From Escherichia coli (lineage in GTDB: Bacteria; Pseudomonadota; Gammaproteobacteria; Enterobacterales; Enterobacteriaceae), in assembly GCF_024700885.2 (NCBI RefSeq), contig NZ_CP117016.1: 64,000 bases of DNA; one strand, written 5' to 3'. Shown one piece after another: positions 3,796 through 64,000 of this stretch; position 1 is the first letter of the stretch; each line of letters begins with the position of its first letter. The position numbers and the translations under genes were made by a program. The notes beneath the pieces are model-generated. The model did not search any database. It saw nothing but the letters and a program-made list of their open reading frames with translations, and had not been told where the DNA came from.

Positions 3796-4212
3796 TTAGC
3801 TAAGTGCAGCGGCTTTGGCGCGAATTGCGCGAATCATCGCTTCCAGACCTTGTGAACGAGATGGGGTGAGATGTTGGGTCAGCGCCATTTTTTCAAACCA
3901 CGGACGCACATCGAAATTGACAATATCCTGCGGCGTCATCTGATCGTAGAGAATAAAGACGACCGCAATAAGCCCTTTCACAATCGCCGCATCGCTGTCG
4001 CCCTGCAATTCAATAATTCCCTGCGCATTCTGGCGCATGACAATCCACACCTGACTCTGGCAGCCCTGAATGCTATTTTGTGAGCTTCTGTCTTCGGCGC
4101 GTAATTCTGGCAGACGCTGGCCCAGCTCAATAATGTAGAGATATTTCTCTTCCCAGTTGGCGCAGCGTAAAAAATTACGCAGCAATTTTTCTTTATCCGG
4201 CAATAAAGCCAT
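3796..4212 (-). CDS. sufE: cysteine desulfuration sulfur acceptor SufE
   Basis: 138-aa ORF; last gene of the suf operon; matches SufE by recall. Confidence 0.9.
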
Positions 4213-4224
4213 AGTGCCTCCCTG

Positions 4225-13500: not shown

Positions 13501-13594
13501 CCGTATCGCCGGTAAAACCTTGTTGCTCCAGCTCTTGCAAAAAATTAAGCACCAGTTGAACGACGCCGGGTGCCTGGGAAATCTGTGGAATCAT
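10538..13594 (-). CDS. ydiJ: FAD-linked oxidoreductase with Fe-S/Cys-rich C-terminal domain (YdiJ)
   Basis: 1018-aa ORF; N-terminal FAD-binding oxidase fold and CxxCxxC motifs; K-12 synteny. Confidence 0.85.
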   Translation of the reverse strand: MIPQISQAPGVVQLVLNFLQELEQQGFTGDTATSYADRLTMSTDNSIYQLLPDAVVFPRSTADVALIARLAAQERYSSLIFTPRGGGTGTNGQALNQGIIVDMSRHMNRIIEINPEEGWVRVEAGVIKDQLNQYLKPFGYFFAPELSTSNRATLGGMINTDASGQGSLVYGKTSDHVLGVRAVLLGGDILDTQPLPVELAETLGKSNTTIGRIYNTVYQRCRQQRQLIIDNFPKLNRFLTGYDLRHVFNDEMTEFDLTRILTGSEGTLAFITEARLDITPLPKVRRLVNVKYDSFDSALRNAPFMVEARALSVETVDSKVLNLAREDIVWHSVSELITDVPDKEMLGLNIVEFAGDDETLIDERVNALCARLDELIASQQAGVIGWQVCSELAGVERIYAMRKKAVGLLGNAKGAAKPIPFAEDTCVPPEHLADYIAEFRALLDSHGLSYGMFGHVDAGVLHVRPALDMCDPQQEILMKQISDDVVALTAKYGGLLWGEHGKGFRAEYSPAFFGEELFAELRKVKAAFDPHNRLNPGKICPPEGLDAPMMKVDAVKRGTFDRQIPIAVRQQWRGAMECNGNGLCFNFDARSPMCPSMKITQNRIHSPKGRATLVREWLRLLADRGVDPLKLEQELPESGVSLRTLIARTRNSWHANKGEYDFSHEVKEAMSGCLACKACSTQCPIKIDVPEFRSRFLQLYHTRYLRPLRDHLVATVESYAPLMARAPKTFNFFINQPLVRKLSEKHIGMVDLPLLSVPSLQQQMVGHRSANMTLEQLEALNAEQKARTVLVVQDPFTSYYDAQVVADFVRLVERLGFQPVLLPFSPNGKAQHIKGFLNRFAKTAKKTADFLNRMAKLGMPMVGVDPALVLCYRDEYKLALGEERGEFNVLLANEWLASALESQPVATVSGEPWYFFGHCTEVTALPGAPAQWAAIFARFGAKLENVSVGCCGMAGTYGHEAKNHKNSLGIYELSWHQAMQRLPRNRCLATGYSCRSQVKRVEGTGVRHPVQALLEIIK

Positions 13595-13982
13595 TATATT
13601 GACCCTTTCCTGCGGTCTGTGATGTAGGTCGATACACTATTCTTTCAGGCGGCTGCAATAGCGCACTGAAAGGTGATGTTTATTTACTCTATGGATTTCG
13701 TGTTGCAGGAAGGCGGCAAGCGAGTGAACTCCAGGAGCTTACAATAGTAAGTGACTGGGGTGAACGAACGTAGCCGCAGCACATGCAACTTGAAATACGA
13801 CGAGTAAATCGTTTGCGTGTTGCCTGAGTTGTTGTACCACATTTTTTTCTAACACGCCCATCAGAATTAAGGGCAGAATCGGCCTGTTAAAAACCGCTGA
13901 AATTGCTCATCATTATGCAGGTGAGTTTCGCGTGTTCACGTCGCGTCGACGATTTGACGCACAAAAAAGGTGAAAAGTAGTT

Positions 13983-15095
13983 ATGGTAAATGTTCGTCAG
14001 CCCAGGGATGTCGCACAAATTCTGCTTTCGGTGCTCTTTTTAGCCATCATGATTGTGGCATGTCTGTGGATTGTACAACCCTTTATTCTCGGCTTTGCAT
14101 GGGCTGGTACGGTGGTTATCGCCACCTGGCCGGTATTGTTACGTTTGCAAAAGATCATGTTTGGTCGCCGCTCTCTCGCCGTTCTGGTGATGACGCTGTT
14201 ATTAGTGATGGTGTTTATCATCCCTATTGCTTTGCTGGTTAACAGTATCGTCGACGGCAGCGGCCCGCTAATTAAAGCCATTTCCAGCGGTGACATGACG
14301 TTACCCGATCTGGCGTGGCTTAATACCATTCCGGTGATTGGCGCGAAGCTATATGCAGGCTGGCACAACTTGCTGGATATGGGGGGGACGGCGATCATGG
14401 CGAAAGTCCGCCCTTATATTGGCACCACCACCACCTGGTTCGTTGGGCAAGCGGCGCATATCGGGCGCTTTATGGTGCATTGTGCGCTGATGCTTCTCTT
14501 CAGTGCCCTGCTGTACTGGCGCGGTGAACAGGTGGCACAAGGCATTCGCCATTTTGCAACCCGTCTGGCAGGCGTTCGCGGTGATGCCGCCGTGCTGCTG
14601 GCGGCACAGGCTATCCGCGCGGTGGCGCTGGGTGTGGTGGTGACGGCGTTAGTACAGGCAGTGCTTGGCGGTATCGGCCTCGCCGTATCCGGCGTACCTT
14701 ATGCAACGTTGCTAACGGTGTTAATGATCCTCTCCTGCCTTGTCCAGCTTGGACCGTTGCCGGTACTGATTCCGGCGATTATCTGGCTCTACTGGACCGG
14801 CGATACCACCTGGGGAACGGTATTATTAGTGTGGAGCGGTGTGGTTGGCACGCTGGATAACGTCATCCGCCCAATGTTAATTCGCATGGGTGCCGATTTA
14901 CCGCTGATCCTGATCCTCTCTGGCGTTATTGGTGGTTTGATTGCTTTCGGGATGATCGGTCTGTTTATTGGTCCGGTTCTGTTAGCCGTTTCCTGGCGTC
15001 TTTTTGCCGCGTGGGTGGAAGAGGTCCCACCGCCGACTGACCAACCGGAAGAAGTTCTCGAAGAACTTGGCGAAATCGAGAAACCGAATAAGTAA
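13983..15095 (+). CDS. ydiK: AI-2E/PerM-family inner membrane transporter
   Basis: 370-aa multi-TM ORF; K-12 synteny. Confidence 0.85.
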   Translation: MVNVRQPRDVAQILLSVLFLAIMIVACLWIVQPFILGFAWAGTVVIATWPVLLRLQKIMFGRRSLAVLVMTLLLVMVFIIPIALLVNSIVDGSGPLIKAISSGDMTLPDLAWLNTIPVIGAKLYAGWHNLLDMGGTAIMAKVRPYIGTTTTWFVGQAAHIGRFMVHCALMLLFSALLYWRGEQVAQGIRHFATRLAGVRGDAAVLLAAQAIRAVALGVVVTALVQAVLGGIGLAVSGVPYATLLTVLMILSCLVQLGPLPVLIPAIIWLYWTGDTTWGTVLLVWSGVVGTLDNVIRPMLIRMGADLPLILILSGVIGGLIAFGMIGLFIGPVLLAVSWRLFAAWVEEVPPPTDQPEEVLEELGEIEKPNK

Positions 15096-15103
15096 TTTCT
15101 CTT

Positions 15104-15128
15104 CAGGCGGCTCTGCCGCCTGATTGTT
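15104..15128 (+). terminator. terminator hairpin after ydiK
   Basis: CAGGCGGC-TCT-GCCGCCTG hairpin followed by a U-rich tract. Confidence 0.5.
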
Positions 15129-15280
15129 AACCCCTGCTAATTGATATTTGCTTGCTCTTCCCCATATTTTCCTGCTTACCGCCATTCAGCTGGTAGTACC
15201 TGTCGCAAATTCTTTACAGTTTTTAAACTAATGAGACGAATCTGATCGACGCAAAAAGTCCGTATGCCTACTATTAGCTC

Positions 15281-15386
15281 ACGGTTATAAATCAACATAT
15301 TGATTTATAAGCATGGAAATCCCCTGAGTGAAACAACGAATTGCTGTGTGTAGTCTTTGCCCATCTCCCACGATGGGCTTTTTTTT
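15281..15386 (+). ncRNA. rprA: RprA small regulatory RNA (activator of rpoS translation)
   Basis: Matches the recalled RprA sequence ACGGUUAUAAAUCAACAUAUUGAUUUAUAAGCAUGGAAAUCCCCUGAGUGAAACAACGAAUUGCUGUGUGUAGUCUUUGCCCAUCUCCCACGAUGGGCUUUUUUU, including its terminator; lies between ydiK and ydiL as in K-12. Confidence 0.9.
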
Positions 15387-15523
15387 AACATTTTTCCGCT
15401 TCGCTACCTCGCCCCTCACGCTTTCCAATAATGTTGCACAAGATACTGTGACTCTCTTCAAGCCGTCAGCAGGCTGATAATGTTATTTATATTTTATTGT
15501 TTATTTCATGCAGCCATTACACG

Positions 15524-15880
15524 ATGAACGCTTATGAACTCCAGGCTCTTCGCCATATTTTTGCCATGACTATTGATGAATGCGCGACCTGGATTGCCCA
15601 GACCGATGACAGTGAAAGCTGGCGTCAATGGGAAAATGGCAAATGCGCCATTCCTGATTATGTAGTCGAGCAACTGTTGGCTATGCGTCAGCAACGAAAA
15701 AAACATCTTCATGCCATCATAGAGAAAATAAATAACCGCATCGGCAACAACACCATGCGTTTTTTCCCCGACTTAACCGCGTTTCAACAAGTCTACCCTG
15801 ATGGCAATTTTATTGACTGGAAGATCTATCAATCGGTAGCCGCTGAATTATATGCACACGATCTGGAGCGCCTTTGTTAA
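15524..15880 (+). CDS. ydiL: uncharacterised protein YdiL
   Basis: 118-aa product from MNAYELQALRH; K-12 synteny. Confidence 0.75.
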   Translation: MNAYELQALRHIFAMTIDECATWIAQTDDSESWRQWENGKCAIPDYVVEQLLAMRQQRKKHLHAIIEKINNRIGNNTMRFFPDLTAFQQVYPDGNFIDWKIYQSVAAELYAHDLERLC

Positions 15881-29645: not shown

Positions 29646-32020
29646 TTCTTCAGTTCAGCCAGGCTTAACCAGGTTTGCACCACGGTGTCCGGGTTCAGAG
29701 ACAGGCTATCGATCCCCTCTTCCATCAACCATGCGGCAAAGTCTTCGTGGTCGGACGGACCCTGACCGCAAATCCCGACATATTTGCCCTGTTTCTTCGC
29801 GGCACGAATCGCCATCGACAGCAGTGCTTTCACCGCATCGTTGCGCTCATCGAACAGTTCAGACACCACGCCGGAGTCACGATCCAGACCGAGCGCCAGC
29901 TGTGTCATGTCGTTTGAGCCAATTGAGAAGCCGTCGAAATATTCGAGGAACTGCTCTGCCAGCAAGGCGTTGGACGGAATTTCACACATCATGATGATTT
30001 TCAGCCCGTTCTCACCACGTTTCAGCCCCTGACGCGCCAGTTCGTCAACCACCGCTTTCGCCTGATCTACGGTACGCACGAACGGGATCATGATCTCAAC
30101 GTTGGTCAGCCCCATATCGTTGCGCACACGTTTCACTGCTTCACACTCCAGCGCGAAGCAGTCGCGGAAGCTGTCGGAAACATAGCGGCCCGCGCCACGG
30201 AAGCCGAGCATCGGGTTCTCTTCATCTGGCTCGTAACGCTCACCACCGACCAGGTTGGCATATTCGTTCGATTTAAAATCAGAGAGACGGACAATGACGC
30301 GCTTCGGATAAAACGCGGCACCCAGCGTCGCGATCCCTTCAGTCAAACGCCCAACGTAAAATTCACGCGGAGAATCAAAACCTTTCATCATCTCGCGGAT
30401 TTCGTTTTGCAACTGCGGTTCCTGATCGTCAAACTCAAGCAGTGCGCGTGGGTGGACGCCAATCATACGGTTGATGATAAATTCCAGACGCGCAAGGCCC
30501 ACGCCTTCGTTCGGCAGGCAGGCGAAGTCGAAAGCACGGTCCGGGTTACCGACGTTCATCATCACCTTCAACGGCAGATCCGGCATCGTTTCTACGCTGG
30601 AGCTTTTCACGCTAAATTCCAGCAACTCCGCATAGACATAACCGGTATCACCTTCGGCACAAGAAACAGTGACGTTCTCACCGTCTTTCATCCGTTCTGT
30701 TGCATCACCACAGCCCACTACCGCCGGAATGCCGAGTTCACGAGCGATGATCGCCGCGTGACAGGTACGCCCCCCACGGTTGGTGACGATGGCAGATGCT
30801 TTCTTCATGATCGGTTCCCAGTCCGGGTCGGTCATGTCAGTAACCAGCACGTCGCCAGGTTCGATGCGGTTCATTTCGCTGATGTCATGGATGACTTTCA
30901 CCGGACCCGCGCCGATGCGATGACCGATAGCACGGCCTTCGGCGATAATCTTACCCTGTGAATGCAGCGTATAACGCTCCATGACCTGACCGCGTGAGCG
31001 CACGGTTTCCGGACGCGCCTGCACAATGAACAGTTTGCCGGTGTGGCCATCTTTCGCCCACTCAATATCCATTGGGCGACCGTAGTGTTTCTCAATTTGT
31101 ACGGCCTGTTTTGCCAGTTCCTGCACTTCTTCGTTGGTCAGCGAGAAGATGTCACGCTGTTCCTGCGGTACGTCTTCGATTTTAACCTGCTTGCCGTGCT
31201 CCTGGGTCGGCGCGTAAACCATGCGGATTTTTTTCGACCCCATGGTGCGGCGCACGATAGCCGGGCGATTCGCCGCCAGTGTCGGTTTGTGCACGTAAAA
31301 CTCATCCGGGTTAACCGCACCCTGCACGACCATTTCACCAAGGCCCCATGCGGAAGTGATAAACACCACCTGGTCAAAGCCGGATTCGGTATCAATGGAG
31401 AACATCACGCCAGAAGATGCGAGGTCGGAGCGCACCATCCGCTGAACACCGGCGGAGAGCGCCACGCCACGGTGATCGTAACCCTGGTGCACACGATAAG
31501 AGATGGCGCGATCGTTAAACAGAGAAGCAAATACATGTTTCACTGCCACGAGAACGGCGTCAAAACCCTGAACGTTGAGGAAAGTTTCCTGCTGACCGGC
31601 AAAAGAAGCGTCCGGCATATCTTCTGCAGTAGCGGAGGAACGCACCGCAAACGAGGCGTTTTCGTCATCGGCGGAAAGCTGTGCATAGGCTTCGCGGATG
31701 GCGTTTTCCAGCTCAGGCTGGAAGGGAGTGTCGATAATCCACTGGCGGATTTGCGCGCCCGCTTTCGCAAGCTGGGTAACATCGTCAATATCCGTTTTAT
31801 CCAGCAGTTCATAAATGCGCTGGTTTACGCCGCTTTGGTCCAGAAACTGGTTAAACGCGTCGGCGGTTGTGGCGAAACCATTCGGAACGGAAACACCCAT
31901 TCCGGAAAGGTTAGTAATCATTTCACCCAGGGAGGCATTTTTGCCCCCAACCCTGTCTACATCATTCATGCCGAGTTGGTTATACCAAAGCACCAGCGGT
32001 GACGAGCCATTGTTGGACAT
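29642..32020 (-). CDS. ppsA: phosphoenolpyruvate synthase
   Basis: 792-aa ORF; PEP-utilising enzyme with the phospho-His region ([13 protein letters not shown]). Confidence 0.93.
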
Positions 32021-32352
32021 CGAACAATCCTTTTGTGATAAATGAACGGTTTGAGAAACACATTTCTGCGCATTTATCTTTGCATATTTAACCGGATGAA
32101 AAAAACGGTGAATCGTTCAAGCAAATATATTTTTTTACTTTTTAAGACTGATCCCAGTGTTGCGCAAATCTGCTCTCTTCGACAATTTCCACATAAACCA
32201 TCGGTATAAACGAAACCGTAAAAATGAAATGCTGTTTTCATAAAAAATAAAATTGAAGGTTCATTTTATAAACCAGACATAACGTTCTACGCTTCTGTGC
32301 GTTTTTAATTTATGCTTTCATAGAATTATGTCTGCATCACGGGAAGAACAAA

Positions 32353-33186
32353 ATGGATAATGCTGTTGATCGCCACGTTTTTTATATTTCTGATGGTACG
32401 GCAATAACTGCGGAGGTATTAGGACACGCAGTAATGTCACAATTTCCCGTCACTATCAGCAGCATTACGCTGCCGTTTGTCGAAAATGAGAGCCGTGCAC
32501 GGGCAGTGAAGGATCAGATTGACGCAATTTATCACCAGACAGGTGTGCGCCCGCTGGTCTTCTACTCCATCGTGTTGCCGGAGATTCGCGCCATCATCTT
32601 GCAAAGTGAGGGCTTTTGCCAGGATATCGTTCAGGCGCTGGTTGCCCCGCTACAACAAGAGATGAAACTGGATCCCACGCCGATTGCTCATCGTACCCAT
32701 GGCCTTAACCCTAATAATCTCAATAAATATGATGCGCGCATTGCTGCGATTGATTACACCCTCGCCCACGATGATGGCATTTCGTTACGCAATCTGGACC
32801 AGGCTCAGGTGATCCTGCTCGGCGTTTCTCGCTGTGGTAAAACCCCCACCAGTCTGTATCTGGCAATGCAATTTGGTATCCGCGCGGCAAACTACCCCTT
32901 TATTGCCGACGATATGGATAATCTTGTGCTACCCGCGTCGCTCAAACCGCTTCAGCATAAATTGTTCGGCCTGACTATCGACCCGGAACGTCTGGCGGCG
33001 ATTCGCGAGGAACGTCGGGAGAACAGTCGCTATGCCTCGCTTCGTCAGTGCAGGATGGAAGTCGCGGAAGTGGAAGCGTTGTACCGTAAAAATCAGATCC
33101 CGTGGATTAACAGTACCAATTATTCGGTAGAAGAGATTGCCACCAAGATCCTCGATATCATGGGCCTTAGCCGCCGAATGTACTAG
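32353..33186 (+). CDS. ppsR: PEP synthase regulatory protein (bifunctional kinase/phosphotransferase)
   Basis: 277-aa ORF with P-loop GVSRCGKT; divergent from ppsA as in K-12. Confidence 0.9.
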
Positions 33187-33342
33187 AGAACTAGTGCATT
33201 AGCTTATTTTTTTGTTATCATGCTAACCACCCGGCGAGGTGTGACACACCTCGCACTTGAAATCAGCTGCGATTGGTTTATCGTGATGCGCATCACTTCC
33301 CGGTAGTCCTGCCGTAGAAGCAACAAATTTCTGAGACTTGTA

Positions 33343-34389
33343 ATGAACAGAACTGACGAACTCCGTACTGCGCGTATTGAGAGCCTGGTAACGCCCGCCG
33401 AACTCGCGCTACGGTATCCCGTAACGCCTGGCGTCGCCACCCATGTCACCGACTCCCGCCGCAGAATTGAAAAAATACTGAATGGTGAAGATAAGCGACT
33501 GTTGGTCATTATTGGCCCCTGCTCGATCCACGATCTCACCGCTGCAATGGAGTACGCCACCCGTCTGCAGTCGCTGCGCAACCAGTACCAGTCACGGCTG
33601 GAAATCGTAATGCGCACCTATTTTGAAAAACCACGAACTGTTGTCGGCTGGAAAGGGCTAATCTCCGATCCGGATTTAAACGGCAGCTATCGGGTAAATC
33701 ACGGTCTGGAGCTGGCGCGCAAATTACTTTTACAGGTAAATGAGCTGGGCGTCCCCACCGCGACTGAGTTCCTCGATATGGTGACCGGTCAGTTTATTGC
33801 TGATTTAATCAGTTGGGGCGCGATTGGCGCACGTACTACCGAAAGTCAGATCCACCGTGAAATGGCTTCGGCACTCTCCTGTCCGGTAGGTTTTAAAAAT
33901 GGTACCGATGGCAACACGCGGATTGCTGTGGATGCTATCCGCGCAGCCCGCGCCAGCCATATGTTCCTCTCGCCAGACAAAAATGGTCAGATGACCATCT
34001 ATCAGACCAGCGGCAACCCGTATGGCCACATTATTATGCGTGGCGGCAAAAAACCGAATTATCATGCCGATGATATCGCCGCAGCCTGCGATACGCTGCA
34101 CGAGTTTGATTTACCTGAACATCTGGTGGTGGATTTCAGCCACGGTAACTGCCAGAAGCAGCACCGTCGCCAGTTAGAAGTTTGTGAGGATATTTGTCAG
34201 CAAATCCGCAATGGCTCTACGGCGATTGCTGGAATTATGGCGGAAAGTTTCCTGCGCGAAGGAACGCAAAAAATCGTCGGCGGTCAGCCGCTCACTTACG
34301 GTCAATCGATTACCGACCCGTGTCTGGGCTGGGAAGATACCGAACGCCTGGTCGAAAAACTCGCCTCTGCGGTTGATACCCGCTTCTGA
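33343..34389 (+). CDS. aroH: DAHP synthase, Trp-sensitive
   Basis: 348-aa class-I DAHP synthase; K-12 synteny. Confidence 0.9.
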   Translation: MNRTDELRTARIESLVTPAELALRYPVTPGVATHVTDSRRRIEKILNGEDKRLLVIIGPCSIHDLTAAMEYATRLQSLRNQYQSRLEIVMRTYFEKPRTVVGWKGLISDPDLNGSYRVNHGLELARKLLLQVNELGVPTATEFLDMVTGQFIADLISWGAIGARTTESQIHREMASALSCPVGFKNGTDGNTRIAVDAIRAARASHMFLSPDKNGQMTIYQTSGNPYGHIIMRGGKKPNYHADDIAAACDTLHEFDLPEHLVVDFSHGNCQKQHRRQLEVCEDICQQIRNGSTAIAGIMAESFLREGTQKIVGGQPLTYGQSITDPCLGWEDTERLVEKLASAVDTRF

Positions 34390-34394
34390 ATGCG

Positions 34395-34424
34395 TGCCCA
34401 TTCCTGACGGAATGGGCATTTCTG
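34395..34424 (+). terminator. terminator hairpin after aroH
   Basis: TGCCCATTCC-TGAC-GGAATGGGCA hairpin followed by a T-rich run. Confidence 0.55.
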
Positions 34425-34519
34425 CGCAACTTGTTGTCTTCTCAACAAATTACTGCTTGCTCTGGCCGCCATAATATTGATAATAAGAATCATTGTTATA
34501 TCAATTATTATTAATTTTT

Positions 34520-34711
34520 ATGCGTTATACGGATAGCAGAAAACTCACGCCTGAAACGGATGCCAATCACAAGACCGCTTCCCCGCAGCCCATCCGGCGA
34601 ATTACCAGCCAGACACTGTTAGGTCCGGATGGCAAACTGATTATCGATCATGACGGGCAAGAATATCTGCTCCGTAAAACTCAGGCTGGCAAGCTGCTGT
34701 TGACCAAGTAG
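34520..34711 (+). CDS. ydiE: HemP/HmuP-like small protein YdiE
   Basis: 63-aa product from [12 protein letters not shown]; K-12 synteny. Confidence 0.7.
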
Positions 34712-34714
34712 CCT

Positions 34715-36190
<1,476 letters not shown>

Positions 36191-36213
36191 TTAAACACCA
36201 GCAAACAGGAGGG

Positions 36214-36927
36214 TTATCGCTGAACCAACGTCGTTATCTGATTTACAGGAACGGCAGGCCACAGACATCCCTGGAGAGCATGGAAATCAAAGGGGGTAAT
36301 CTGTGCCATTATTTCTGGCGTATCAATGCCCCCCGCGATGATGCAATTGCAACATGGGGAAATTTGCGCCTGGATCGCACGAATAAACGGTTCGAAGGAG
36401 CGATGCGTAATTTGTTGCTGAATAAAACTTTTATCCAGCATGACGCGGGTGAAAAGACCATCAAAAACCGCTTTCATTGTGCTATTGCCTGCGCCCAAAT
36501 TACCTAACACAAGGGGATACATTTGCGATAAGGACAAAAGATCGCGATTATCTTTTCCTTCATCGAGATGCGGGTAATTCTCATTAATCAACAGTTCAAT
36601 AAACGGATATTTTAATAGTTCGCCTGCGTAATTATCCCTGTCTAATAATAATGTAGCCACTTGTGGGGTTAAATTAAGCCAGGCAAAGAGTTTATGTTGA
36701 ATAAAAAAGTGTTGGCATGATTTTAGTAATTCCAACTGCTCTGAAAATAATTGCCAATGTTGCTCCTCGGTAAGTTGCGCTATAACCCGACTCGTCGGGA
36801 TACGAACCGTACCATCTTCACTGGAGAAATGGGTAATTAACTCAACGCCGACAAGGTCTTGCTGGTTATCTCTTATCGGCAGGAAATAGCAATCAGAATG
36901 ATAAAGATTCTCCAAAAAAATCTTCAT
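36214..36927 (-). CDS. ydiV: anti-FlhD4C2 factor YdiV (degenerate EAL domain)
   Basis: 237-aa ORF; K-12 synteny; AT-rich gene as in K-12. Confidence 0.85.
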   Translation of the reverse strand: MKIFLENLYHSDCYFLPIRDNQQDLVGVELITHFSSEDGTVRIPTSRVIAQLTEEQHWQLFSEQLELLKSCQHFFIQHKLFAWLNLTPQVATLLLDRDNYAGELLKYPFIELLINENYPHLDEGKDNRDLLSLSQMYPLVLGNLGAGNSTMKAVFDGLFTRVMLDKSFIQQQITHRSFEPFIRAIQAQISPCCNCIIAGGIDTPEIMAQITPFDFHALQGCLWPAVPVNQITTLVQR

Positions 36928-37173
36928 GGTAACCGTCCCTCTCGAAGGATGTTTTTCAGTATCCGGCTAAAAGGGATGAGGCCATAAGACATAACAATTA
37001 CAGAAGGAGTAACTTTCATTTGTTCCATGTTAACCACTTTTTCAGGGGTCCTTTTATTAGATTATCCTGATTATAAACGAATAATCCATTTACGGAATTT
37101 TTGTCTGTAAAATACTACTGTATTCAGGAGTAAATGGACGGAGATGTATCATCGCCGTCAATTTTTCGACATA

Positions 37174-37638
37174 CTAGATTCGTCTCGCCTGCCAGAAATT
37201 TTTCTGCCAATAGACATTATCAAGTGAGGAACGCATCACTCCCTTGCTGGTAGAGGCGTGGATAAATTGGTTGTTGGTATCGTAAATACCTACATGCAAA
37301 CCATTTTGTCCGGAGCCCGTTTTGAAAAAGACCAGGTCACCAGGCAGCAACTCGTCTTTATCAATTTGCGTGCCGATAGAGGCTTGTTGTTTGGTTTCAC
37401 GGGGCAGCTGCAAATCGAAACGATCGCGCATCGTCACAACCACAAACCCCGAACAGTCCACACCGCGCCGCGTCATGCCACCATAACGATACGGCGTGCC
37501 ATGCCAGCTCTGTAGCTGGTCGTTCAAACCGGCAATAACGGTAATCGAATCAGAAAGTCTGGCATTTGGCGGCGGTGCTTTATGGTGGCTACACCCGGCC
37601 AGAAACAGTGCTGTGATCAAAATAAGGCAGAAACGCAT
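37174..37638 (-). CDS. nlpC: NlpC/P60-family lipoprotein
   Basis: 154-aa ORF with lipobox LAGC and NlpC/P60 Cys...His catalytic region (DCSGFV...H). Confidence 0.88.
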   Translation of the reverse strand: MRFCLILITALFLAGCSHHKAPPPNARLSDSITVIAGLNDQLQSWHGTPYRYGGMTRRGVDCSGFVVVTMRDRFDLQLPRETKQQASIGTQIDKDELLPGDLVFFKTGSGQNGLHVGIYDTNNQFIHASTSKGVMRSSLDNVYWQKNFWQARRI

Positions 37639-37715
37639 TCCGTACGGTTCCTCTGTTTTTTATTCTTGCATTAATTTAGCGTCGTAATTACCCGATTTTC
37701 AAGATACTAATGAAA

Positions 37716-38465
37716 TCAGATGGTCGAAATCAGCATTCTGTGACCTTCGATATCCAGACGGCGAAAATTCATCCCATAGGCCTGCGCCAGATTTGGCGGC
37801 GTGAGCACCTCTTCCCTGCGTCCACTGGCCAGCATTTTTCCACCTTTTAGCAACCACGCCCGATGCGCATGACGCAATGTATGGTTGAGATCGTGACTGC
37901 TCATCACAATCGCCAGTCCTTGCTGACACAGCGCGCTCAGAATTTTGTCTAATGCACTTTGTTGCGCAACATCAAGACTGTTCATCGGCTCATCAAGAAG
38001 CAGCAATTGGCCTGCGGGATTGGCTTGTGGTGTGATTTGCAGCACCACCGCAGCAAGACGTACGCGTTGCCATTCGCCGCCGGAAAGTTGATTGGTGCTA
38101 CGTCCGAGTTTGTCATCAAGAGCCAGCGCCCCTGCGACATCATTCAGTAGTTCGGTACGCGTTTTATCGTGCTGATGCAGTGTCAGGTAGTGCCAGACCA
38201 GCATTGCAAACGGCGGCGTCTGCTGTTGTGAAAGATAGGCGCGATGCAGCGCGAGTTTTGTTGCGGACCATGCTTCCAGTGGTTGCCCCGCGAACTGAAT
38301 GCTTCCCTTACCGCTGGTCATTCCGGCCATTCGCGCCAGTAAGGTACTCTTACCCGCGCCATTCGGCCCCACCAGATGCAGGATCTCCCCAGCCCGAACC
38401 TCGCCAGAAAGCGGCCCAAGGCGGGTAGATTCCGCAACATCCTGTAACTGCATCACAATAGACAT
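37716..38465 (-). CDS. btuD: vitamin B12 ABC transporter ATP-binding protein
   Basis: 249-aa ORF with Walker [10 protein letters not shown] and signature LSGGEWQR. Confidence 0.9.
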
Positions 38466-39016
38466 TATTTCGCCAACGCCAGTTTAATGCTTTCCATCAC
38501 AATGGGATCTTCCGGCGTCATATCCGGGGAAAAACGCTGGATGACCAATCCGTCCCTGCCAACTAAAAATTTCTCAAAATTCCATAAAATATCATCAGGG
38601 TACAGCGGTGCACGACCTTTGCTGACCATACGGGCATAGAATCCGCTCTCTTCCGGCGCGACTGCGGTCGGCGCTGCGGCAATCAATTTTTGATACAGCG
38701 GATGGCGTCCTTCGCCATTAACTTCAATCTTACTGAACATCGGGAACGTCACCCCCCATGTAGTGGTGCAGTAAGTTTTAATCTCTTCATCGCTGCCCGG
38801 TTCTTGCTCCAGAAACTGGTTGCACGGGAATCCCAGCACCACAAAACCTCGATCGGCCCAGGCTTTCTGAATATTCTCCAACTGCTCATATTGCGGCGTT
38901 AAGCCACACTTTGAGGCGACATTGACAATCAACAGCACATTACCGGCGTACTTCTCCAGCGTGGTCACTTCACCGTCGATATCTTTCACTACGGTCGTCA
39001 GAATGGAATCTTGCAT
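38465..39016 (-). CDS. btuE: glutathione peroxidase-family protein
   Basis: 183-aa ORF; GPx-family motifs; overlaps btuD by 1 nt. Confidence 0.9.
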
Positions 39017-39078
39017 CGTTTCTCCTGGGTGTGGTCAGTAAAAATCTTAGCTTTTAATCATAGACCGTCTTTTTGCGG

Positions 39079-40059
39079 CTAACGTCCTGCTTTTAACAAT
39101 AACCAGATAAACACCGGCGCACCCAACGTTGCGGTGACCACGCCAATAGGCAGCTCTGCGGCAGCTAATGCCAGGCGCGCTACAACATCAGCCAGCAGCA
39201 ATGCGCTCGCCCCTGCCAGCGCGCAGCCGGGAAGTAATACGCGATGATCGGTTAAACCACATAACCGGAGAATATGGGGGATCACCAGACCAATAAAGCC
39301 GATAGCACCCGCCAGCGCCACACTGACGCCAACCATCCAGCCGGTCGCTGCCACCAGCACATTGCGCCAGAACCACAGGGGTAAACCCAGTTGCCGCGCC
39401 GAGATCTCGCCAAGTGCTAACATATTCATCGATCTGGACTGACAACAGATCCACAACAACACGGGGATCAATGCCAGCATCAGCCAGCTTTGCCGCCAGT
39501 CTACGCCGCCAAAACCGCCCATCATCCAGTACATCAGCTGACGTAAATCAACAGAGGTGGAAAAGTAGATAGCCCACGTCATTAGTGCGCTACAGATAAT
39601 CCCTAATGCAACGCCAGCCAGCAATAACCGACTGGTCGAAAGATGACGACGGGCGAAACGTAAGAGTATTAAAGTGATGATAAGCGCGCCAGCAATCGCA
39701 CACAGCCCCAGCGCCCAGTTGGGGAGTTGCCCTTGCCCAAGCAATACCGCGGCGATAAGCCCCACGCCTGCGCCATTAGAGACGCCAAGTAGTCCAGGTT
39801 CTGCCAGAGGATTTTCAAATAACGCCTGCATTACAGCGCCGGATATAGCCAACGCCGCACCAACCAGCAATACAGCCAGCGTACGTGGCAGGCGAATTTG
39901 CCAGACGAACAGTTCGCCACGAGGAGTAAACCAGTCACCTGGCGAGATCCATTGTTCACCGGCGCAAAGGCTTAAGAGAAGCGCCAGCAGCATCAAAACT
40001 GACAGACATAATAACCAGCGAATATTTTGTCGCTGTTGTTGGCGGGCAAGTGTCAGCAT
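39079..40059 (-). CDS. btuC: vitamin B12 ABC transporter permease
   Basis: 326-aa multi-TM ORF, FecCD-family permease. Confidence 0.9.
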
Positions 40060-40267: not shown

Positions 40268-40708
40268 TTACTTAATAACAGTAACCACAGCCACAAGCAC
40301 GGCCATCGCAGACAGGACAATACCTGTGAGTAACCAAGTCTGATTTGCAAATGATTTCTGAAGTTCAGTACGATGCTCAGCCATCTCAACTTTCAGAGAC
40401 TGGCGTAAATCAGCCATCTCAGACTTCAGGGATTGGCGAGATTCTGCCATCTCAAGCCTCAACCCTTCGCGAATCTCCAGTACATCAGATTTGGTAGCAA
40501 AGGATTCGCTTCTTGTGGTGAGAGTAATCAGGTTGTTTTTGATTTCAGTCACATCACTTTCCAGGCAACTGACCCGCCGTTCAAGGTCGTCATTCATGCC
40601 ATCACCTCCATCATTACCACTTCCTGTTACTTGGTTGTTGGATACATTATAGGCATTCTCTTTCTTTTTTCTGAACCGCGAAATATGTGCAACATTCTCT
40701 GCCATCAC
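40268..40708 (-). CDS. hypothetical tail-anchored coiled-coil membrane protein (prophage cargo)
   Basis: 146 aa; three 11-residue repeats (EMAESRQSLKS / EMADLRQSLKV / EMAEHRTELQK) and a single C-terminal TM helix (WLLTGIVLSAMAVLVAVVTVIK); start overlaps the stop of the upstream gene (ATGA). No family recognised. Confidence 0.55.
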   Translation of the reverse strand: MMAENVAHISRFRKKKENAYNVSNNQVTGSGNDGGDGMNDDLERRVSCLESDVTEIKNNLITLTTRSESFATKSDVLEIREGLRLEMAESRQSLKSEMADLRQSLKVEMAEHRTELQKSFANQTWLLTGIVLSAMAVLVAVVTVIK

Positions 40709-41067
40709 TTCTCATCACCCTGCTTGCCTACCCAGTTCATAAAGGCCCGGGCCGAGTAACGATGAACAAACCCACATCTGTTACAGGTAAGTCGGAATTC
40801 ATAGTTATGGATATTTTCCCGATCATGTCCCTCATATCCCGGATACCCAGTAAATGGACCGATGTAATCAAGCATAACAAAAGTGCCTAAATCACACTCC
40901 TCAGCAGTTTTCGGCTCAGGCCCCACCTCAACAATATTCGTCAAATACATGTACATATCCGTATCGCCACACGACAAACATTTTTCATTCGTAGACGACT
41001 CATTGAGAAAACGCGCAAAATTATCGAGCGTTGCCATTCTTTTAAGCTCATCTAAATGAAACTTCAC
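40705..41067 (-). CDS. hypothetical Cys-motif protein (possible zinc ribbon), prophage cargo
   Basis: 120 aa with CLSC and CNRC pairs; begins 3 nt after the integrase stop. No family recognised. Confidence 0.55.
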   Translation of the reverse strand: MKFHLDELKRMATLDNFARFLNESSTNEKCLSCGDTDMYMYLTNIVEVGPEPKTAEECDLGTFVMLDYIGPFTGYPGYEGHDRENIHNYEFRLTCNRCGFVHRYSARAFMNWVGKQGDEK

Positions 41068-47703: not shown

Positions 47704-48663
47704 ATGAAAATTTGTATCGACGACGGCTCCACCAACATCAAGCTGGCATGGACTGAGAACGGCGAACGCCGCAACGCCATCAGCCCGAACAGCTTCAAGT
47801 CGGAATGGTCTGCGCCGTTCGGTGGCACGCAGCCCGCGAACTACATGCTTGATGGCGTGCGCTATGGTTTTGATCCGGTCAGCGATCGCTTTATCCAGAC
47901 GACCGACACACAATACCAGTACAGCGATGTGAATGTCATTGCCATTCATCACGCGCTGGTCAAATCAGGCATCACGCCACAGGAGGTGGATGTGGTTGTC
48001 ACCCTGCCACTGAGCGAGTATTTCGACACAAACGCACAGCCGGACATGGCCAACATCAACCGCAAAAAAGCAAACGTTATGCGCCCGGTGGAATACCAGA
48101 ACGGCGAAGCATTCACTATCCGTAATGTACGGGTTATGCCTGAATCCATTCCGGCTGGCTTTAAAGCACTGGCTGACATGAGTCCGTTTGAATCCCTGCT
48201 GATTGTGGATTTAGGTGGAACCACGCTGGATGTGGCAAAGGTTCAGGGACAACTGGCAGGTATCAGCCAGGTGTTTTGCGATCCACACGTAGGCGTTTCC
48301 CTGATGGCCGATGCAGTACTGTCGGTGATGGCCACTAACGGTATGCGTACCAGTCACCACATCGCCAATACCATTATCGAACATCGCCATGATGAAGCCT
48401 GGCTGCGCCAGCACATCCACAATGACGCGCATTACGCCAGCCTGATGGCGGTTATTCGTGAAAAGGAAGAAACACTGAAACAACGCGTGATCCGCGCGCT
48501 GGCGGGTTTTTCGGGTTACGGGCGGGTGATGGTTGTCGGTGGCGGGGCGGAGATTGTGGCACCCGCTATCCGCGAAGCCTGCGGAGTTAATGCGACTTTC
48601 ATCGCGGACGGGGTGCCACAGTTTGCTCTGGTTAATGGGCTGTACGCAATGGACAAGGAGTAA
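47704..48663 (+). CDS. ParM/StbA-like actin-type ATPase
   Basis: 319 aa; actin-fold motifs IDDGSTNIKL (phosphate 1), DLGGTTLDV (phosphate 2), VVGGGAE (adenosine); collinear over full length with recalled plasmid R1 ParM (MLVFIDDGSTNIKLQW…YSDVNVVAVHHALL…VMPESIPAGY…DLGGTTLD…GGGAEL). Confidence 0.8.
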   Translation: MKICIDDGSTNIKLAWTENGERRNAISPNSFKSEWSAPFGGTQPANYMLDGVRYGFDPVSDRFIQTTDTQYQYSDVNVIAIHHALVKSGITPQEVDVVVTLPLSEYFDTNAQPDMANINRKKANVMRPVEYQNGEAFTIRNVRVMPESIPAGFKALADMSPFESLLIVDLGGTTLDVAKVQGQLAGISQVFCDPHVGVSLMADAVLSVMATNGMRTSHHIANTIIEHRHDEAWLRQHIHNDAHYASLMAVIREKEETLKQRVIRALAGFSGYGRVMVVGGGAEIVAPAIREACGVNATFIADGVPQFALVNGLYAMDKE

Positions 48664-48667
48664 ACCA

Positions 48668-48979
48668 ATGACGACACCAACCAGGCGGATAAGTTTCTAT
48701 CTGAAGCCTGCGGCCGTCAAGAACGAAAGCGAAGCATGCGCCTGGCTGGACAGCCTTACACCGGAAGCCCGCAAAAGCGGCCAACGCGTGGCTTTTCTGG
48801 CCGGGCTGGCACTTCTGAAAATGAATCCGGCAGAGGCTTACCGACTGGCTGCATGGGCTGACGATGAGGCGTTATCAGTGACACAAACCAGGACAGAACG
48901 CCCCCTGTCACAGCCAGTACCAACCGCACAGATAACCAGTCAGATGGCCGGAAATATCAGGGCGTTATTTCCTGAATAA
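48668..48979 (+). CDS. ParR-like DNA-binding adaptor
   Basis: 103 aa from MTTPTRRISFYLKPAA...; N-terminus resembles recalled R1 ParR (RRTIAFKLNPDV…LDSIP.GERS…AALTAGLALY); starts 5 nt after the parM-like stop. Confidence 0.65.
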   Translation: MTTPTRRISFYLKPAAVKNESEACAWLDSLTPEARKSGQRVAFLAGLALLKMNPAEAYRLAAWADDEALSVTQTRTERPLSQPVPTAQITSQMAGNIRALFPE

Positions 48980-59436: not shown

Positions 59437-60014
59437 GCGCAGAACTCATGCGACTGCTGAGCAACATCATCCGCACCGGGATCATCTCTGAAGTTGATGA
59501 GGAATCCTGGTGCGTGCGCGTTCGCAGCGGCGAACTGGAAACAGGCTGGTTGCGCTGGAACACCACGCGCGCGGGAGCCTTCAATGTGTGGCTGCCGCCA
59601 TCACCAGGCGAACAGGTGGTAATTGCCTGCATTGGCGGCAACCCGGAAACCGCCATGATAATTGGCAGCCTGTGGAGTGATGCCATTCCGGCCCCCGGCA
59701 AAAGCCTGAAAGAAATCGTGGTCAGCGCGCCGGATGGCGCGGTGTTCCGCTACGACGCGGCCGCAGGCGCACTGAGCGCCAGCGGCATGAAAACAGCCAC
59801 CCTGCAGGCATCCGTCAGCGTGACACTGGATACGCCCGTCGTGGAATGCACAGACCTTCTGAGAACGGCGACGCTTGACGTCACAAAAGGGGGAAAGATG
59901 AGCGGCAATATCACGCACAGCGGCGGCAATTTCACCTCAAACGGCATCACAGTGCATACGCATAAACACGGTGGCGTTAAAGGTGGCAGCGATTCGACAG
60001 GAGGCCCGCAGTGA
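59433..60014 (+). CDS. baseplate spike/assembly protein (P2 gpV-like)
   Basis: 193 aa; synteny V-W-J-I. Confidence 0.7.
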   Translation: MSAELMRLLSNIIRTGIISEVDEESWCVRVRSGELETGWLRWNTTRAGAFNVWLPPSPGEQVVIACIGGNPETAMIIGSLWSDAIPAPGKSLKEIVVSAPDGAVFRYDAAAGALSASGMKTATLQASVSVTLDTPVVECTDLLRTATLDVTKGGKMSGNITHSGGNFTSNGITVHTHKHGGVKGGSDSTGGPQ

Positions 60015-60361
60015 CAACCCGCTATACAGGAATGAACCCGGACGGAACGGGAAACCTGAACGATATGGAGCACCTGAAACAGTCAGTCAAGGACATCCTG
60101 ACCACCCCGCTGGCAAGCCGGGTTATGCGACGGGAATATGGCAGCCTTGTGCCTGATTTGATAGACGAACCCATGAATAACACCACGCGTCTGCAATGCA
60201 TGAGTGCTGCCGTGATTGCGCTGACACGATGGGAACCCCGCATTGCCCTGGATGCCATCGACGTTGTCTGGAAGGCAGGAGGCCGCGCCGGGGTGACGCT
60301 GTCGGGCACTGTCATGCAGACCATGCAGAATGTTGAATTAACCATCACGCTGAGGGAGTAA
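60011..60361 (+). CDS. baseplate wedge protein (P2 gpW-like)
   Basis: 116 aa, same size class as P2 W; synteny. Confidence 0.75.
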   Translation: MTTRYTGMNPDGTGNLNDMEHLKQSVKDILTTPLASRVMRREYGSLVPDLIDEPMNNTTRLQCMSAAVIALTRWEPRIALDAIDVVWKAGGRAGVTLSGTVMQTMQNVELTITLRE

Positions 60362-60364
60362 ATC

Positions 60365-61261
60365 ATGCCTGCCGTTGACCTTTCACAGTTACCGGAACCC
60401 GCCATCATCGCGGAGCCTGACTTTGAGGCAATTCTGGCTGACACAAAGGCCATGATGATTGCGTCCTATCCCGCCGAACAGCGTGAAGCCGTTTCCGCCG
60501 CGCTGGAGCTGGAATCGGAACCCCTTAACGTTATCGCTCAAACCATGTCGTTTCGTGAAATGCTGTTACGCCAGCGGGTCAATGAGGGTGCACGCGCCTG
60601 CATGCTAAGCCACAGCGCCGGGACAGACCTGGACAACCTCGCGGGCAATATGAACACAAAGCGCCTGGTTATCACTCCGGCAACGGATACCACCGACGCA
60701 GTGATGGAAAGTGACACCTCGCTGAGACTACGGGCGCAACGGGCATATGACGGTCTGAGTGTTGCTGGCCCGTCAGGTGCATACGAGTATTTTGCACGCA
60801 GCGCCAGCGGTCTGGTACGCGATGCGCGGGCCATCAGCCCGTCTCCGGCCAACGTGACGGTTTCCATCCTGTCCACTGAGGGCGACGGCACAGCAACGGA
60901 GGCGTTGCTTAATACCGTTCGCGCCGTTCTGAATGCAGAGCATACCCGCCCGGTGGCCGACCGCCTGACCGTACAGAGTGCCAGAATCGTGACATGGCGG
61001 CTGAATGCAAAACTGTACTTTTACCCCGGCCCGGAATCCGAACCTATTCTGGCCGCGGCGGAATCGTCATTCAGGAAGTGGCTGGCTGAACAGGGGCTTA
61101 TCGGTCAGGACGTGGCGTTGTCCGCCATTGCTGCCGCACTTCATGTACACGGCGTGCAACGCGTGGAGATAATCGAACCCACACAGAATATGGCCATCAG
61201 CGACATACAGGCGGCGCGCTGTGAGTCATTCACCATCAGCGAAGGTGGGCGTAATGAGTAA
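60365..61261 (+). CDS. baseplate protein (P2 gpJ-like)
   Basis: 298 aa; synteny. Confidence 0.75.
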   Translation: MPAVDLSQLPEPAIIAEPDFEAILADTKAMMIASYPAEQREAVSAALELESEPLNVIAQTMSFREMLLRQRVNEGARACMLSHSAGTDLDNLAGNMNTKRLVITPATDTTDAVMESDTSLRLRAQRAYDGLSVAGPSGAYEYFARSASGLVRDARAISPSPANVTVSILSTEGDGTATEALLNTVRAVLNAEHTRPVADRLTVQSARIVTWRLNAKLYFYPGPESEPILAAAESSFRKWLAEQGLIGQDVALSAIAAALHVHGVQRVEIIEPTQNMAISDIQAARCESFTISEGGRNE

Positions 61262-61784
61262 TTCACTGTTACCGCCATCAGCCAGCAGTTTCATGCGTCG
61301 TGCCGAAGCTGTCGGAACGCGCATTACAGACATCCCGGTAGACCTCAACACGCTGTGGTCGCCGGACACCTGCCCGGTGCACCTGCTGCCTTATCTCGCC
61401 TGGGCATTTTCCGTTGACCGCTGGGATCGCAACTGGCCGGAAGAGACAAAGCGACAGGTGATTCGTGATGCATGGCTGATACACCGACACAAGGGAACCA
61501 TCAGCGCACTGCGCCGGGCCATTGAGCCGCTGGGATACCTCATTCGTGTGTCTGAGTGGTGGGAGTTCGGCGGAGAACCGGGAACATTTACCGTTGAAGT
61601 GGGCACGCTGGACAGTGGCGTGACGGAGGAAATGTATCTGGAAATGGAGCGGTTGATTGCTGATGCCCGCCCGGTCAGCCGCCACATGACAGGGCTGAAT
61701 ATCATTCAGGAGATCCCGGGAGATATTTTCGCGGCGGCAGCAACTTACGACGGTGAAGTCATTACCATTTATCCGGACGATTAA
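61254..61784 (+). CDS. baseplate/tail protein (P2 gpI-like)
   Basis: 176 aa from [13 protein letters not shown]; overlaps the J stop. Confidence 0.75.
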
Positions 61785-61786
61785 GC

Positions 61787-63976
61787 ATGAGTACCACAAC
61801 ACGTAAATTTAAAACCGTTATCACCGATACGGGTGCCAAAAAATTAGCTCAGGCAGCCGCGCCAGATGGTAAGCTTGTCCGCCTGACTCATATGGCCGTG
61901 GGCGACGGTGGCGGTACATTGCCCACACCAGACAGTAAGCAGACCCGTCTGGTGCATGAGGTGTGGCGACATACTGTTAATCGCGTCTTCCTGGACGCAA
62001 CACATCAGAACCGCATTATTGCGGAGCTGGTTATTCCTCCTGAAACGGGCGGATTCTGGATCCGGGAAATTGGTGTATTTGATGAGCACGGCGATTTGAT
62101 CGCGGTTGGCAATACAGCCGAAAGTTACAAGCCAACCGTTGCCGAAGGGTCAGGACGTGCACAAACATTTCGCACCATTCTGACCGTCTCCAGCACTGCC
62201 ACTGTGGCGCTTACCGTGGATAACACCATGGTTATGGCCACAGTGGATTACGTGAATGACAAACTGAAAGAACATGAACAGTCACGACGTCACCCGGACG
62301 CCTCGCTGACCGCAAAAGGCTTTGTTCAACTCAGTAGCGCCACCAACAGCACGTCTGAAGCACTGGCCGCAACGCCGAAAGCGGTCAAGGCAGCCTATGA
62401 CCTTGCTAACGGGAAATATACCGCACAGGACGCCACTATAGCGCGAAAAGGCCTTGTTCAGCTCAGTAGCGCCACCAACAGCGATTCTGAAACGCTGGCG
62501 GCAACACCAAAGGCGGTAAAGGCAGCATATGACCTTGCTAACGGGAAATATACCGCACAGGACGCTACCACAGCGCGAAAAGGTCTTGTCCAGCTCAGTA
62601 GTGCGACCAACAGCACATCCGAAATGCTGGCGGCAACACCAAAGGCGGTAAAGGCAGCATATGACCTTGCTAACGGGAAATATACCGCACAGGACGCTAC
62701 GACAGCACAAAAAGGAATTGTCCAGCTCAGTAGTGCAACCAACAGCGCATCTGAAACGCTTGCTGCGACATCGAAAGCAGTGAAAGCAGCTAATGACAAT
62801 GCGAATGGTCGGGTACCTTCTGCCCGTAAGGTGAATGGTAAGGCGCTTTCAGCGGATATAACACTGACACCGAAAGATATTGGTACGCTTAACTCAACAA
62901 CTATGTCATTCAGCGGTGGTGCTGGTTGGTTCAAATTAGCAACGGTAACCATGCCGCAGGCGAGTTCTGTTGTTTCAATTACGTTGATTGGTGGGGCTGG
63001 ATATAACGTCGGTTCACCTCAACAGGCAGGTATATCTGAACTTGTTTTGCGTGCAGGTAATGGTAATCCGAAGGGGATTACTGGTGCTTTATGGCAGCGC
63101 ACATCGGCAGGGTTTACAAATTTTGCCTGGGTCAATACATCTGGTGATACTTACGATATTTACGTTGCAATCGGAAATTATGCGACTGGTGTAAATATTC
63201 AATGGGATTATACCAGTAATGCCAGCGTAACGATTCATACGTCACCTGCATATTCTGCTAATAAGCCGGAAGGGTTAACGGACGGTACAGTTTATTCACT
63301 CTATACGCCATCAGAGCAGTTTTATCCGCCTGGCGCACCAATCCCGTGGCCATCGGATACCGTTCCGTCTGGTTATGCCCTGATGCAGGGGCAGACTTTT
63401 GACAAATCTGCCTACCCGAAACTTGCAGTCGCTTATCCGTCAGGCGTGATCCCTGATATGCGTGGCTGGACGATTAAGGGCAAGCCCGCCAGTGGTCGTG
63501 CCGTATTGTCTCAGGAACAGGACGGCATTAAATCGCACACCCACAGCGCCAGCGCATCCAGTACGGATTTGGGTACGAAAACCACATCTTCGTTTGATTA
63601 CGGCACTAAATCAACGAATAACACGGGTGCACATACCCACAATGTATCTGGTACTGCAAATAGTGCTGGCGCACATACTCATACCGTTCCATTAAGGAGA
63701 CCAAACAGTGGAGGTATGAATTTCGACTGGCTTGATGGTGCATCAAGTGGCACGGTGGTGGGGAATGGAACTGTGCCTTCTTCTGGCGCACATACCCACT
63801 CAGTATCAGGTACCGCTACAAGTGCTGGGGCACATGCACACACTGTTGGTATTGGCGCTCATACGCACTCTGTTGCGATTGGTTCACATGGACACACCAT
63901 CACCGTTAACGCTGCTGGTAACGCGGAAAACACCGTTAAAAACATCGCATTTAATTATATTGTGAGGCTTGCATAA
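61787..63976 (+). CDS. tail fibre protein (P2 gpH-like) with internal tandem repeats and C-terminal His-x-His repeats
   Basis: 729 aa; conserved N-terminal baseplate-attachment region, four 44-aa repeats, and a C-terminal array of GAHTH/HTHSV motifs. Confidence 0.8.
62313..62840 (+). repeat. 4 x 132-bp in-frame tandem repeat inside the tail-fibre gene
   Basis: Repeat unit encodes KG(F/L)[37 protein letters not shown].; the fourth copy is degenerate. This is coding repeat, not CRISPR. Confidence 0.8.
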
Positions 63977-64000
63977 TGGCATTCAGAATGAGTGAACAAT
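63976..64000 (+). CDS. start of next tail gene (tail-fibre assembly position), truncated by window end
   Basis: ATG overlapping the H stop (MAFRMSEQ...); only 8 codons visible. Confidence 0.3.

Follow-up and report, generated by a model that had tools for sequence, protein, structure and literature searches.

A mosaic P2-type tail-fibre gene with four PF03406 repeat units and a T4 gp37-like needle domain in an Escherichia coli prophage

Mosaic tail fibres were already described for phages P2, T4 and lambda in the 1980s-90s (studies cited by PMC9594776 and PMC3157838). The P2 fibre protein gpH gained parts by horizontal transfer (PMC9594776), and the 3' end of T4 gene 37, together with gene 38, derives from lambda-like sequences (PMC3157838). 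In T4 gp37, His-x-His (HxH) pairs from three chains coordinate seven irons along the needle axis, and a tip subdomain (residues 932-959), which is an insertion in the needle stem, makes up the distal pole and carries residues that bind lipopolysaccharide (LPS) and OmpC (PMC6957217, PMC6116203, PMC11705849). Here, we have analyzed a gpH-type tail-fibre gene in a 64,000-nucleotide (nt) stretch of Escherichia coli contig NZ_CP117016.1 (assembly GCF_024700885.2; hereafter the window). The gene occupies positions 61787..63976 on the + strand (stop codon inside the end coordinate) and encodes 729 amino acids (aa). With a probability of roughly 0.9, it encodes an ordinary mosaic trimeric fibre of the P2 type, which has a chaperone-dependent, iron-stapled needle of the gp37/Stf type, owes its specificity to a tip at aa 633-662 and diversifies slowly by recombination at repeats.

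The gene was found as a single uninterrupted open reading frame (ORF) in the ORF listing of the window (61787-63976, + strand). Its product matched PHROG 295 ('tail fiber protein', E=7.7e-290), and no family match was obtained in an NCBIfam search of the protein. Identity was 100% to the RefSeq coding sequence of E. coli E-1246 (WP_127904466.1, 'phage tail protein'). Three complete E. coli genomes have an annotated 'phage tail protein' gene with this full identity, and 15 further full-length E. coli alleles among the matches listed had 95.7-99.9% identity. The window from 40268 to 64000 differed from the prophage of strain E-1246 at one position in ~23.7 kb, and the RefSeq-annotated locus showed 1 mismatch to the window in 14.2 kb; on the basis of this near-identity, the RefSeq annotation could be transferred. 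The fibre gene lies 3' of the baseplate genes V, W, J and I (59448..61784, + strand; RefSeq locus annotation and window ORFs), which encode the structure on which the fibre would dock, and 5' of a tail-fibre assembly gene, and the same order is present in P2 and P88. Thus, the original prediction of a tail-fibre gene, made from the letters of the window, is supported by PHROG 295, by the N-terminal Pfam domain PF12571 and by the location downstream of J and I, with the assembly gene following. The gene is the gpH equivalent of a P2-family, P88-like (Xuanwuvirus, Peduoviridae) prophage.

The N-terminal domain (aa 6-153; 61802..62245, + strand) matched PF12571 ('Phage tail-collar fibre protein, N-terminal'; E=5.9e-53), which is the domain type of P2 gpH, and is homologous to that protein. 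It had ~97% DNA identity to relatives that carry other numbers of repeat units. By analogy with published P2, pyocin and Mu fibres, among which N-terminal attachment was reported for the pyocin and Mu proteins, this domain probably attaches the fibre to the baseplate. Comparison with P2 gene H gave ~81% DNA identity over nt 229-992 (megablast), with the repeat units of the two genes aligned. The P2 fibre also resembles the present one in its PF12571 domain, in being encoded downstream of J and I and upstream of the assembly gene, and in having PF03406 units directly after the anchor. On the other hand, P2 gpH has two units and a different distal part without HxH motifs, whereas the gene analyzed here has four units, a needle of the gp37/Stf type and a chaperone gene of the lambda Tfa type. 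The closest sequenced phage was P88, whose fibre gene shared 91.6% DNA identity over the first 869 nt. The overall prophage gene order is also that of P88, including the sheath-to-U block on the opposite strand. P88 differs in having three units, a Mu/P1-like distal part without HxH motifs, and an invertible alternative end accompanied by a DNA invertase, in contrast with the single fixed gp37-type end found here.

The repeat array (62303..62830, + strand) consists of four in-frame, full 44-codon units of 132 nt each (62303-62434, 62435-62566, 62567-62698 and 62699-62830). Tandem Repeats Finder reported one array at 62314-62760 (period 132 nt, 3.4 copies, 89% matches, score 670), and Pfam assigned four consecutive PF03406 ('Phage tail fibre repeat') domains to aa 173-213, 217-257, 261-301 and 305-345 (E values from 8e-21 to 8e-18), each of which spans positions 1-41 of the 42-position model. 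Both results agreed with the four 132-bp in-frame tandem repeats that had been predicted. The suggestion that these repeats are near-identical in DNA did not hold: units 1 and 2 were 83% identical, units 1 and 3 were 80% identical and unit 4 shared 61-67% with the others, its distal third being completely divergent, and even the closest pair (units 2 and 3, 92%) differed at 11 of 132 positions. A recent expansion in this allele, which had been proposed on that ground, is likewise not supported, in view of the divergence of the units (8-39%) and the constancy of their number. Among the matches listed, all 18 full-length E. coli alleles with 95.7-100% identity were exactly 2190 nt long, which corresponds to four units. 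Another 20 listed alleles aligned without gaps over nt 1-1856 and must therefore have four units each. These figures refer to the matches listed. In a separate comparison of the repeats with complete E. coli genomes, the spans were joined from pieces of matches and are approximate.

Over a wider range of relatives, the number of units varied considerably. Two units are present in P2 gpH, three in P88 and four in another P2-like phage (P2DC1, OU784750), and in all of these, as in the fibre analyzed here, the units come directly after the N-terminal anchor. Among the 120 best-scoring database proteins sharing the N-terminus, three units were found in 41, four in 53, five in 22 and six in 5. In two relatives with five units, both known from short-read assemblies, three internal units were 99-100% identical in DNA, and the first unit was 98% identical to unit 1 of the present gene. 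Because the internal units are so similar to one another while unit 1 stays at 98% to relatives, the first and last units are positional orthologues, and internal units are gained or lost in relatives, as expected from unequal homologous exchange. The length variation that had been envisaged for this fibre is therefore real at the level of the family (two in P2, three in P88 and three to six in the closest 120 proteins) and absent among near-identical alleles, where the number is fixed at four. The comparison of copy number across relatives, which had been named as a check, gave the same divided answer (2-6 in the family; 4 in the 18 full-length alleles at 95.7-100%).

PF03406 units also occur in fibres of lambdoid prophages of O157 and other strains, with ~89% DNA identity. 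Since P2 and P88 have the same anchor and repeats in front of unrelated distal parts, and since lambdoid fibres share the units, the array appears to be a conserved piece of the shaft and, in addition, a joint at which anchor and distal module are recombined. A PDB profile search with the repeat unit found a solved relative only in Mu S, which has one such unit (chains 5YVQ, 8JU3 and 9KI1); other PDB hits (IbpA and others) had E values above 0.5 and were considered to be noise. The Mu system, S (gp49) and U, resembles the present locus in that a PF03406 unit (residues 113-156) lies between the baseplate anchor and the distal part, and Mu U matches the C-terminal part of the chaperone described below. 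Mu S is distinguished by its single unit instead of four, an unrelated distal domain and alternative ends controlled by inversion.

Towards the end of the array, the gene enters a different compositional region. The GC content decreased from ~0.57-0.60 in the baseplate genes to 0.45-0.50 from approximately nt 62650 onward, that is, in the distal half of the fibre gene. This fall fits a mosaic junction near the last repeat unit and is consistent with a foreign distal part. The first segment of this part is a beta-rich middle domain (aa 349-498; 62831..63280, + strand), in which the pLDDT (predicted local distance difference test) of an AlphaFold2 model was at most 67. According to tblastn searches, this domain is shared with the side tail fibres of lambdoid phages and with some of the distal fibres of T-even phages. 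The stf side tail fibre of JL22 (99.6-kb genome) was 79% identical over the whole distal part, and T-even distal fibres were 41-48% identical over aa ~357-517. The middle domain and the needle that follows it are also present in other P2-like fibres.

The C-terminal third of the protein (aa 499-729; 63281..63973, + strand) comprises a collar and a needle of the T4 gp37 type. A phmmer search of the PDB aligned this region with residues 15-242 of chain 2XGF_A, the T4 gp37 tip (E=1.2e-86), and 151 of 231 residues were identical (65%). The collar matched PF07484 (aa 516-563; 63332-63475, + strand; E=7e-11). Seven HxH motifs could be identified between 63536 and 63895 (+ strand), at aa 584-586, 616-618, 630-632, 669-671, 683-685, 692-694 and 701-703, and five of them are of the GAH[TA]H type. 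Shuffling of the protein gave an expectation of 0.63 HxH motifs, and none of 20,000 shuffles reached seven, which leaves the predicted C-terminal His-x-His array in place. Moreover, all seven motifs are in register with those of T4 gp37 (H584/H883, 616/915, 630/929, 669/966, 683/980, 692/989 and 701/998). The array had been said to resemble the metal-coordinating motifs of phage fibre tips; the alignment to 2XGF agrees with this and indicates that the array is in fact homologous to the metal-binding needle of T4 gp37, and not merely similar to it. Seven octahedral iron sites are accordingly predicted in the trimer by the T4 alignment.

The tip is the exception to this conservation. The predicted tip subdomain (aa 633-662; 63683..63772, + strand), which lies between HxH motifs 3 and 4 and aligns with residues 932-959 of T4 gp37, had only 3 of 30 residues identical to the T4 tip (10%) and was two residues longer, whereas the flanking needle and collar were 64-94% identical. 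Thus, the scaffold is conserved and the tip is new. By analogy with T4 gp37, receptor contact may be made by aa 633-662; as the tip is unlike that of T4, the receptor cannot be deduced from the comparison. Still, the residues expected to determine the receptor are narrowed to this segment, which may be useful for retargeting or for typing the prophage. On the whole, T4 gp37/gp38 resembles the present system in the collar, the six-stranded needle scaffold, the seven HxH motifs in register and the homologous chaperone gene directly downstream. It differs in its LPS/OmpC-binding tip and in being a 1026-aa distal half-fibre of T-even phages, compared with the 729-aa P2-type fibre here.

Directly downstream lies a tail-fibre assembly gene of the Tfa/gpG type, of which the window includes only the first 25 nt (63976..64000, + strand). 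The start codon of this gene and the stop codon of the fibre gene overlap in the sequence TAATG, and the RefSeq annotation of the identical locus gives a 205-aa product ('tail fiber assembly protein'). This protein matched PHROG 105 (E=7e-94), was 81% identical to lambda Tfa and 28% identical to T4 gp38 over 87% of its length, and its C-terminal part matched Mu U (5YVQ_B). A gp38/Tfa-type chaperone gene is thus present at the expected place, and the needle and chaperone genes together are the known Stf/Tfa-gp37/gp38 cassette. Lambda Stf/Tfa shares with this locus both the downstream chaperone and the distal part; for the latter, identity to the side tail fibres of the lambdoid phages HK629 and 2H10 was 68-81%. 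The lambdoid fibres differ in their N-terminal anchor, which is of the PF08400 type ('prophage tail fiber N-terminal domain').

We also examined how closely related alleles differ from each other. Close alleles differed chiefly between HxH no. 2 or 3 and no. 4, where four unrelated tip segments were observed, and these alleles carry 5-7 HxH motifs. The same allele is represented in the database by two shorter proteins, P0055 (690 aa) and P0044 (676 aa), in which exactly 39 and 53 residues, respectively, are missing between GAHTH motifs. Compared with the window (63626-63847), the gap removes the whole tip, and 39 and 53 aa correspond to spacings of 117 and 159 nt among the short direct-repeat families of the HxH-coding DNA (42, 117 and 159 nt). 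Because the deletion lengths equal these spacings, recombination between HxH-coding motifs is suggested as the cause of the tip deletions; the tip-less fibres may be real recombinational deletions or artefacts. Tetart et al. (in 1996 and 1998) reportedly observed duplications and motif-mediated swaps in T-even gp37, which the tip deletions found here would echo. Specificity would most plausibly change by a swap of the distal module and tip. The suggestion that host range rests on the number of repeats was not supported, since the comparisons revealed that it is the distal module and tip that are swapped, and no device for programmed variation adjoins the gene. An invertible-segment switch of the Mu G, P1 C or P88 type was rejected. 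In the RefSeq annotation of the locus, neither an invertase nor an alternative fibre end was found between tfa and gene U, and no inverted repeats longer than 21 nt flank the variable 3' part in positions 11900-15600 of locus L001 (that interval has a single inverted repeat, a local hairpin of 21 nt inside the N-terminal region). No reverse transcriptase was present among the annotated prophage genes examined.

These observations could be combined into the following model. The N-terminal domain of the P2 gpH type would anchor the fibre to the baseplate wedge, and the four 44-residue PF03406 units would form the proximal shaft and, at the same time, a conserved joint for recombining distal modules. 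Next would come the middle domain common to lambdoid and T-even fibres, and then the needle, in which, as in its homologues T4 gp37 and lambda Stf, the chain would run outward, make a small receptor-contacting tip subdomain and run back. Three chains are expected to trimerize, so that each of the seven HxH motifs would hold one iron ion on the fibre axis, and folding of the needle would be assisted by the lambda-Tfa/T4-gp38-type chaperone encoded directly downstream. Over evolutionary time, the length of the shaft would change by unequal exchange between repeat units, and exchange at repeats or HxH-coding motifs would swap or delete distal modules and thereby change receptor specificity, with nothing programmed. 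The recombination mechanism is proposed from the pattern of variation among relatives.

Several points weigh against this model. Both iron binding at the seven HxH sites and the dependence of needle folding on the chaperone are predicted by homology, and the repeat array is assigned to the shaft on topological grounds, as it lies between the anchor to the baseplate and the end that would bind the receptor. The PF03406 fold has no solved relative beyond the one Mu S unit; the papers found on this family give no structure, and the homology template used in one paper was a partially disordered extended structure. An AlphaFold2 monomer model of the whole protein, made with a 24-sequence alignment, had a mean pLDDT of 33.7 and a pTM (predicted template modelling score) of 0.25. 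In addition, the five- and six-unit arrays whose units are identical are known from assemblies of short reads, in which identical tandem units can be miscounted. Finally, tail gene D encodes 262 aa in E-1246, whose prophage is identical, compared with 366 aa in phage P88.

The last point also bears on whether the fibre belongs to an infectious phage at all. The gene might be a relic in a defective prophage, or might encode the fibre of a tailocin-like particle, in which case its modules would be conserved and would have no role in the host range of an infectious phage. In E-1246, the gene that comes after the 262-aa gene D is unrelated, encodes 384 aa and lies on the opposite strand, and a number of genes in the early region carry a frameshifted or partial flag. 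Against this, the late operon from portal to the tail-fibre assembly gene is intact and syntenic with that of the functional phage P88, and three genomes have the same uninterrupted fibre ORF without any difference. Furthermore, in contrast with the single mismatch in ~23.7 kb of prophage, the adjoining chromosome (window 30000-40059) differed from E-1246 by 0.7-1.25%. The occurrence of the same prophage at the same btuC-ihfA site in diverged backgrounds suggests recent horizontal spread, or mobility. On balance, we consider it unlikely that the gene is such a relic.

Another explanation is that the number of 44-residue units is itself a selected trait, tuning the reach of the fibre to the thickness of the host O-antigen or capsule and so contributing to host range. 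The facts that one N-terminus occurs with 2-6 units and that some arrays hold freshly duplicated, 99-100% identical units would agree with this. However, the number of units covaries with the distal module, so that the number may vary merely as a consequence of modules being exchanged at the repeats, and the proposal appears doubtful. A broader version, in which the number of PF03406 units on the same anchor is an adaptive length dial and the HxH-coding direct repeats are built-in sites of tip excision or exchange (for example, in P0055 and P0044), seems improbable as a whole; if true, the two together would give temperate P2-like phages a cheap, repeat-driven way to change host range. No relevant report was found in a literature search on tandem-repeat copy number in prophage fibres. 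Programmed, high-frequency phase or length variation within a clone, yielding a lysate with mixed host ranges, is very improbable: tandem and dispersed direct repeats do lie inside the gene, copy number differs between relatives and HxH repeats bound the deletion variants, but the adjoining region has no annotated invertase where P88 has one, no reverse transcriptase is among the prophage genes examined, flanking inverted repeats longer than 21 nt are absent, units that are 8-39% divergent are a poor substrate for frequent slippage, and every near-identical allele from complete genomes among the matches listed has exactly four units.

The ordinary mosaic fibre set out above is already known biology: the exact protein is in RefSeq, both types of repeat are Pfam families and a crystal structure of the needle is available at 65% identity. 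The locus is therefore a clean textbook case of a tail-fibre mosaic (P2 anchor, catalogued repeats, and T4/lambda needle and chaperone) with little import beyond annotation. In this respect, the RefSeq name 'phage tail protein' could be refined to 'tail fibre, gp37/Stf-type receptor-binding needle'.

Some additional features of the fibre gene were observed. For most of the 120 closest database proteins, the contig ends within this gene and the protein is truncated there, and several homologues from complete genomes terminate in out-of-frame peptides. The end peptide of homologue P0054, for example, equals the terminal peptide of an alternative-frame ORF of the window (63462-63695). Segments of the gene recur at a median of 2 and a maximum of 17 places per genome, and this recurrence in other prophages explains why assembly breaks and frameshifts are frequent in the gene. 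Minus-strand ORFs within the repeats (62282-62710 and 62458-62952) were considered to be by-products of the repeated sequence. A scan for promoters and terminators around the gene gave counts no higher than expected from shuffles. In the five-unit relatives, a ~300-aa Macro-domain (PF01661) gene lies between the fibre and assembly genes and overlaps the fibre stop codon (positions 3588-4490 of locus L003 and 3057-3901 of locus L004). Genomes of O157:H7 and O55:H7, as well as the Salmonella phage SEN5, likewise have a 'phage tail protein' paired with a 'macro domain-containing protein'.

The prophage is inserted between btuC and ihfA/pheT and contains an integrase, a repressor, a replication endonuclease, portal, terminase, a P2-family capsid, lysis genes and the baseplate genes V-W-J-I, which, in the RefSeq annotation, are followed by the fibre gene, the 205-aa tail-fibre assembly protein and then a sheath/tube/tape-measure block. 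The 384-aa hypothetical gene on the opposite strand lies after gene D and before ogr (L001 21557-23630, past the window end); it may be an insertion that truncated D, which would bear on the inducibility of the prophage. Between its replication endonuclease and portal genes, the prophage also carries a gene for plasmid segregation of the ParM type and one for partition/stability (window 47704-48979), and their equivalents in P88 are labelled 'recombinase' and 'chromosome partitioning protein' in its record. Two small hypothetical genes (145 and 120 aa; window 40268-41067, - strand) lie between btuC and the prophage integrase, and the pair possibly represents cargo or a moron position at the prophage edge. 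Finally, a convergent 181-aa 'transferase' gene (L001 14771-15316, equal to window 64557-65102, past the window end) shares 37 nt with the 3' end of the assembly gene. Phage vB_EcoM-613R2 has a counterpart with the annotation serine acetyltransferase, and the 181-aa protein matched PHROG 2154 (unknown function). The slot of this gene is where P88 holds its invertible fibre segment and invertase.

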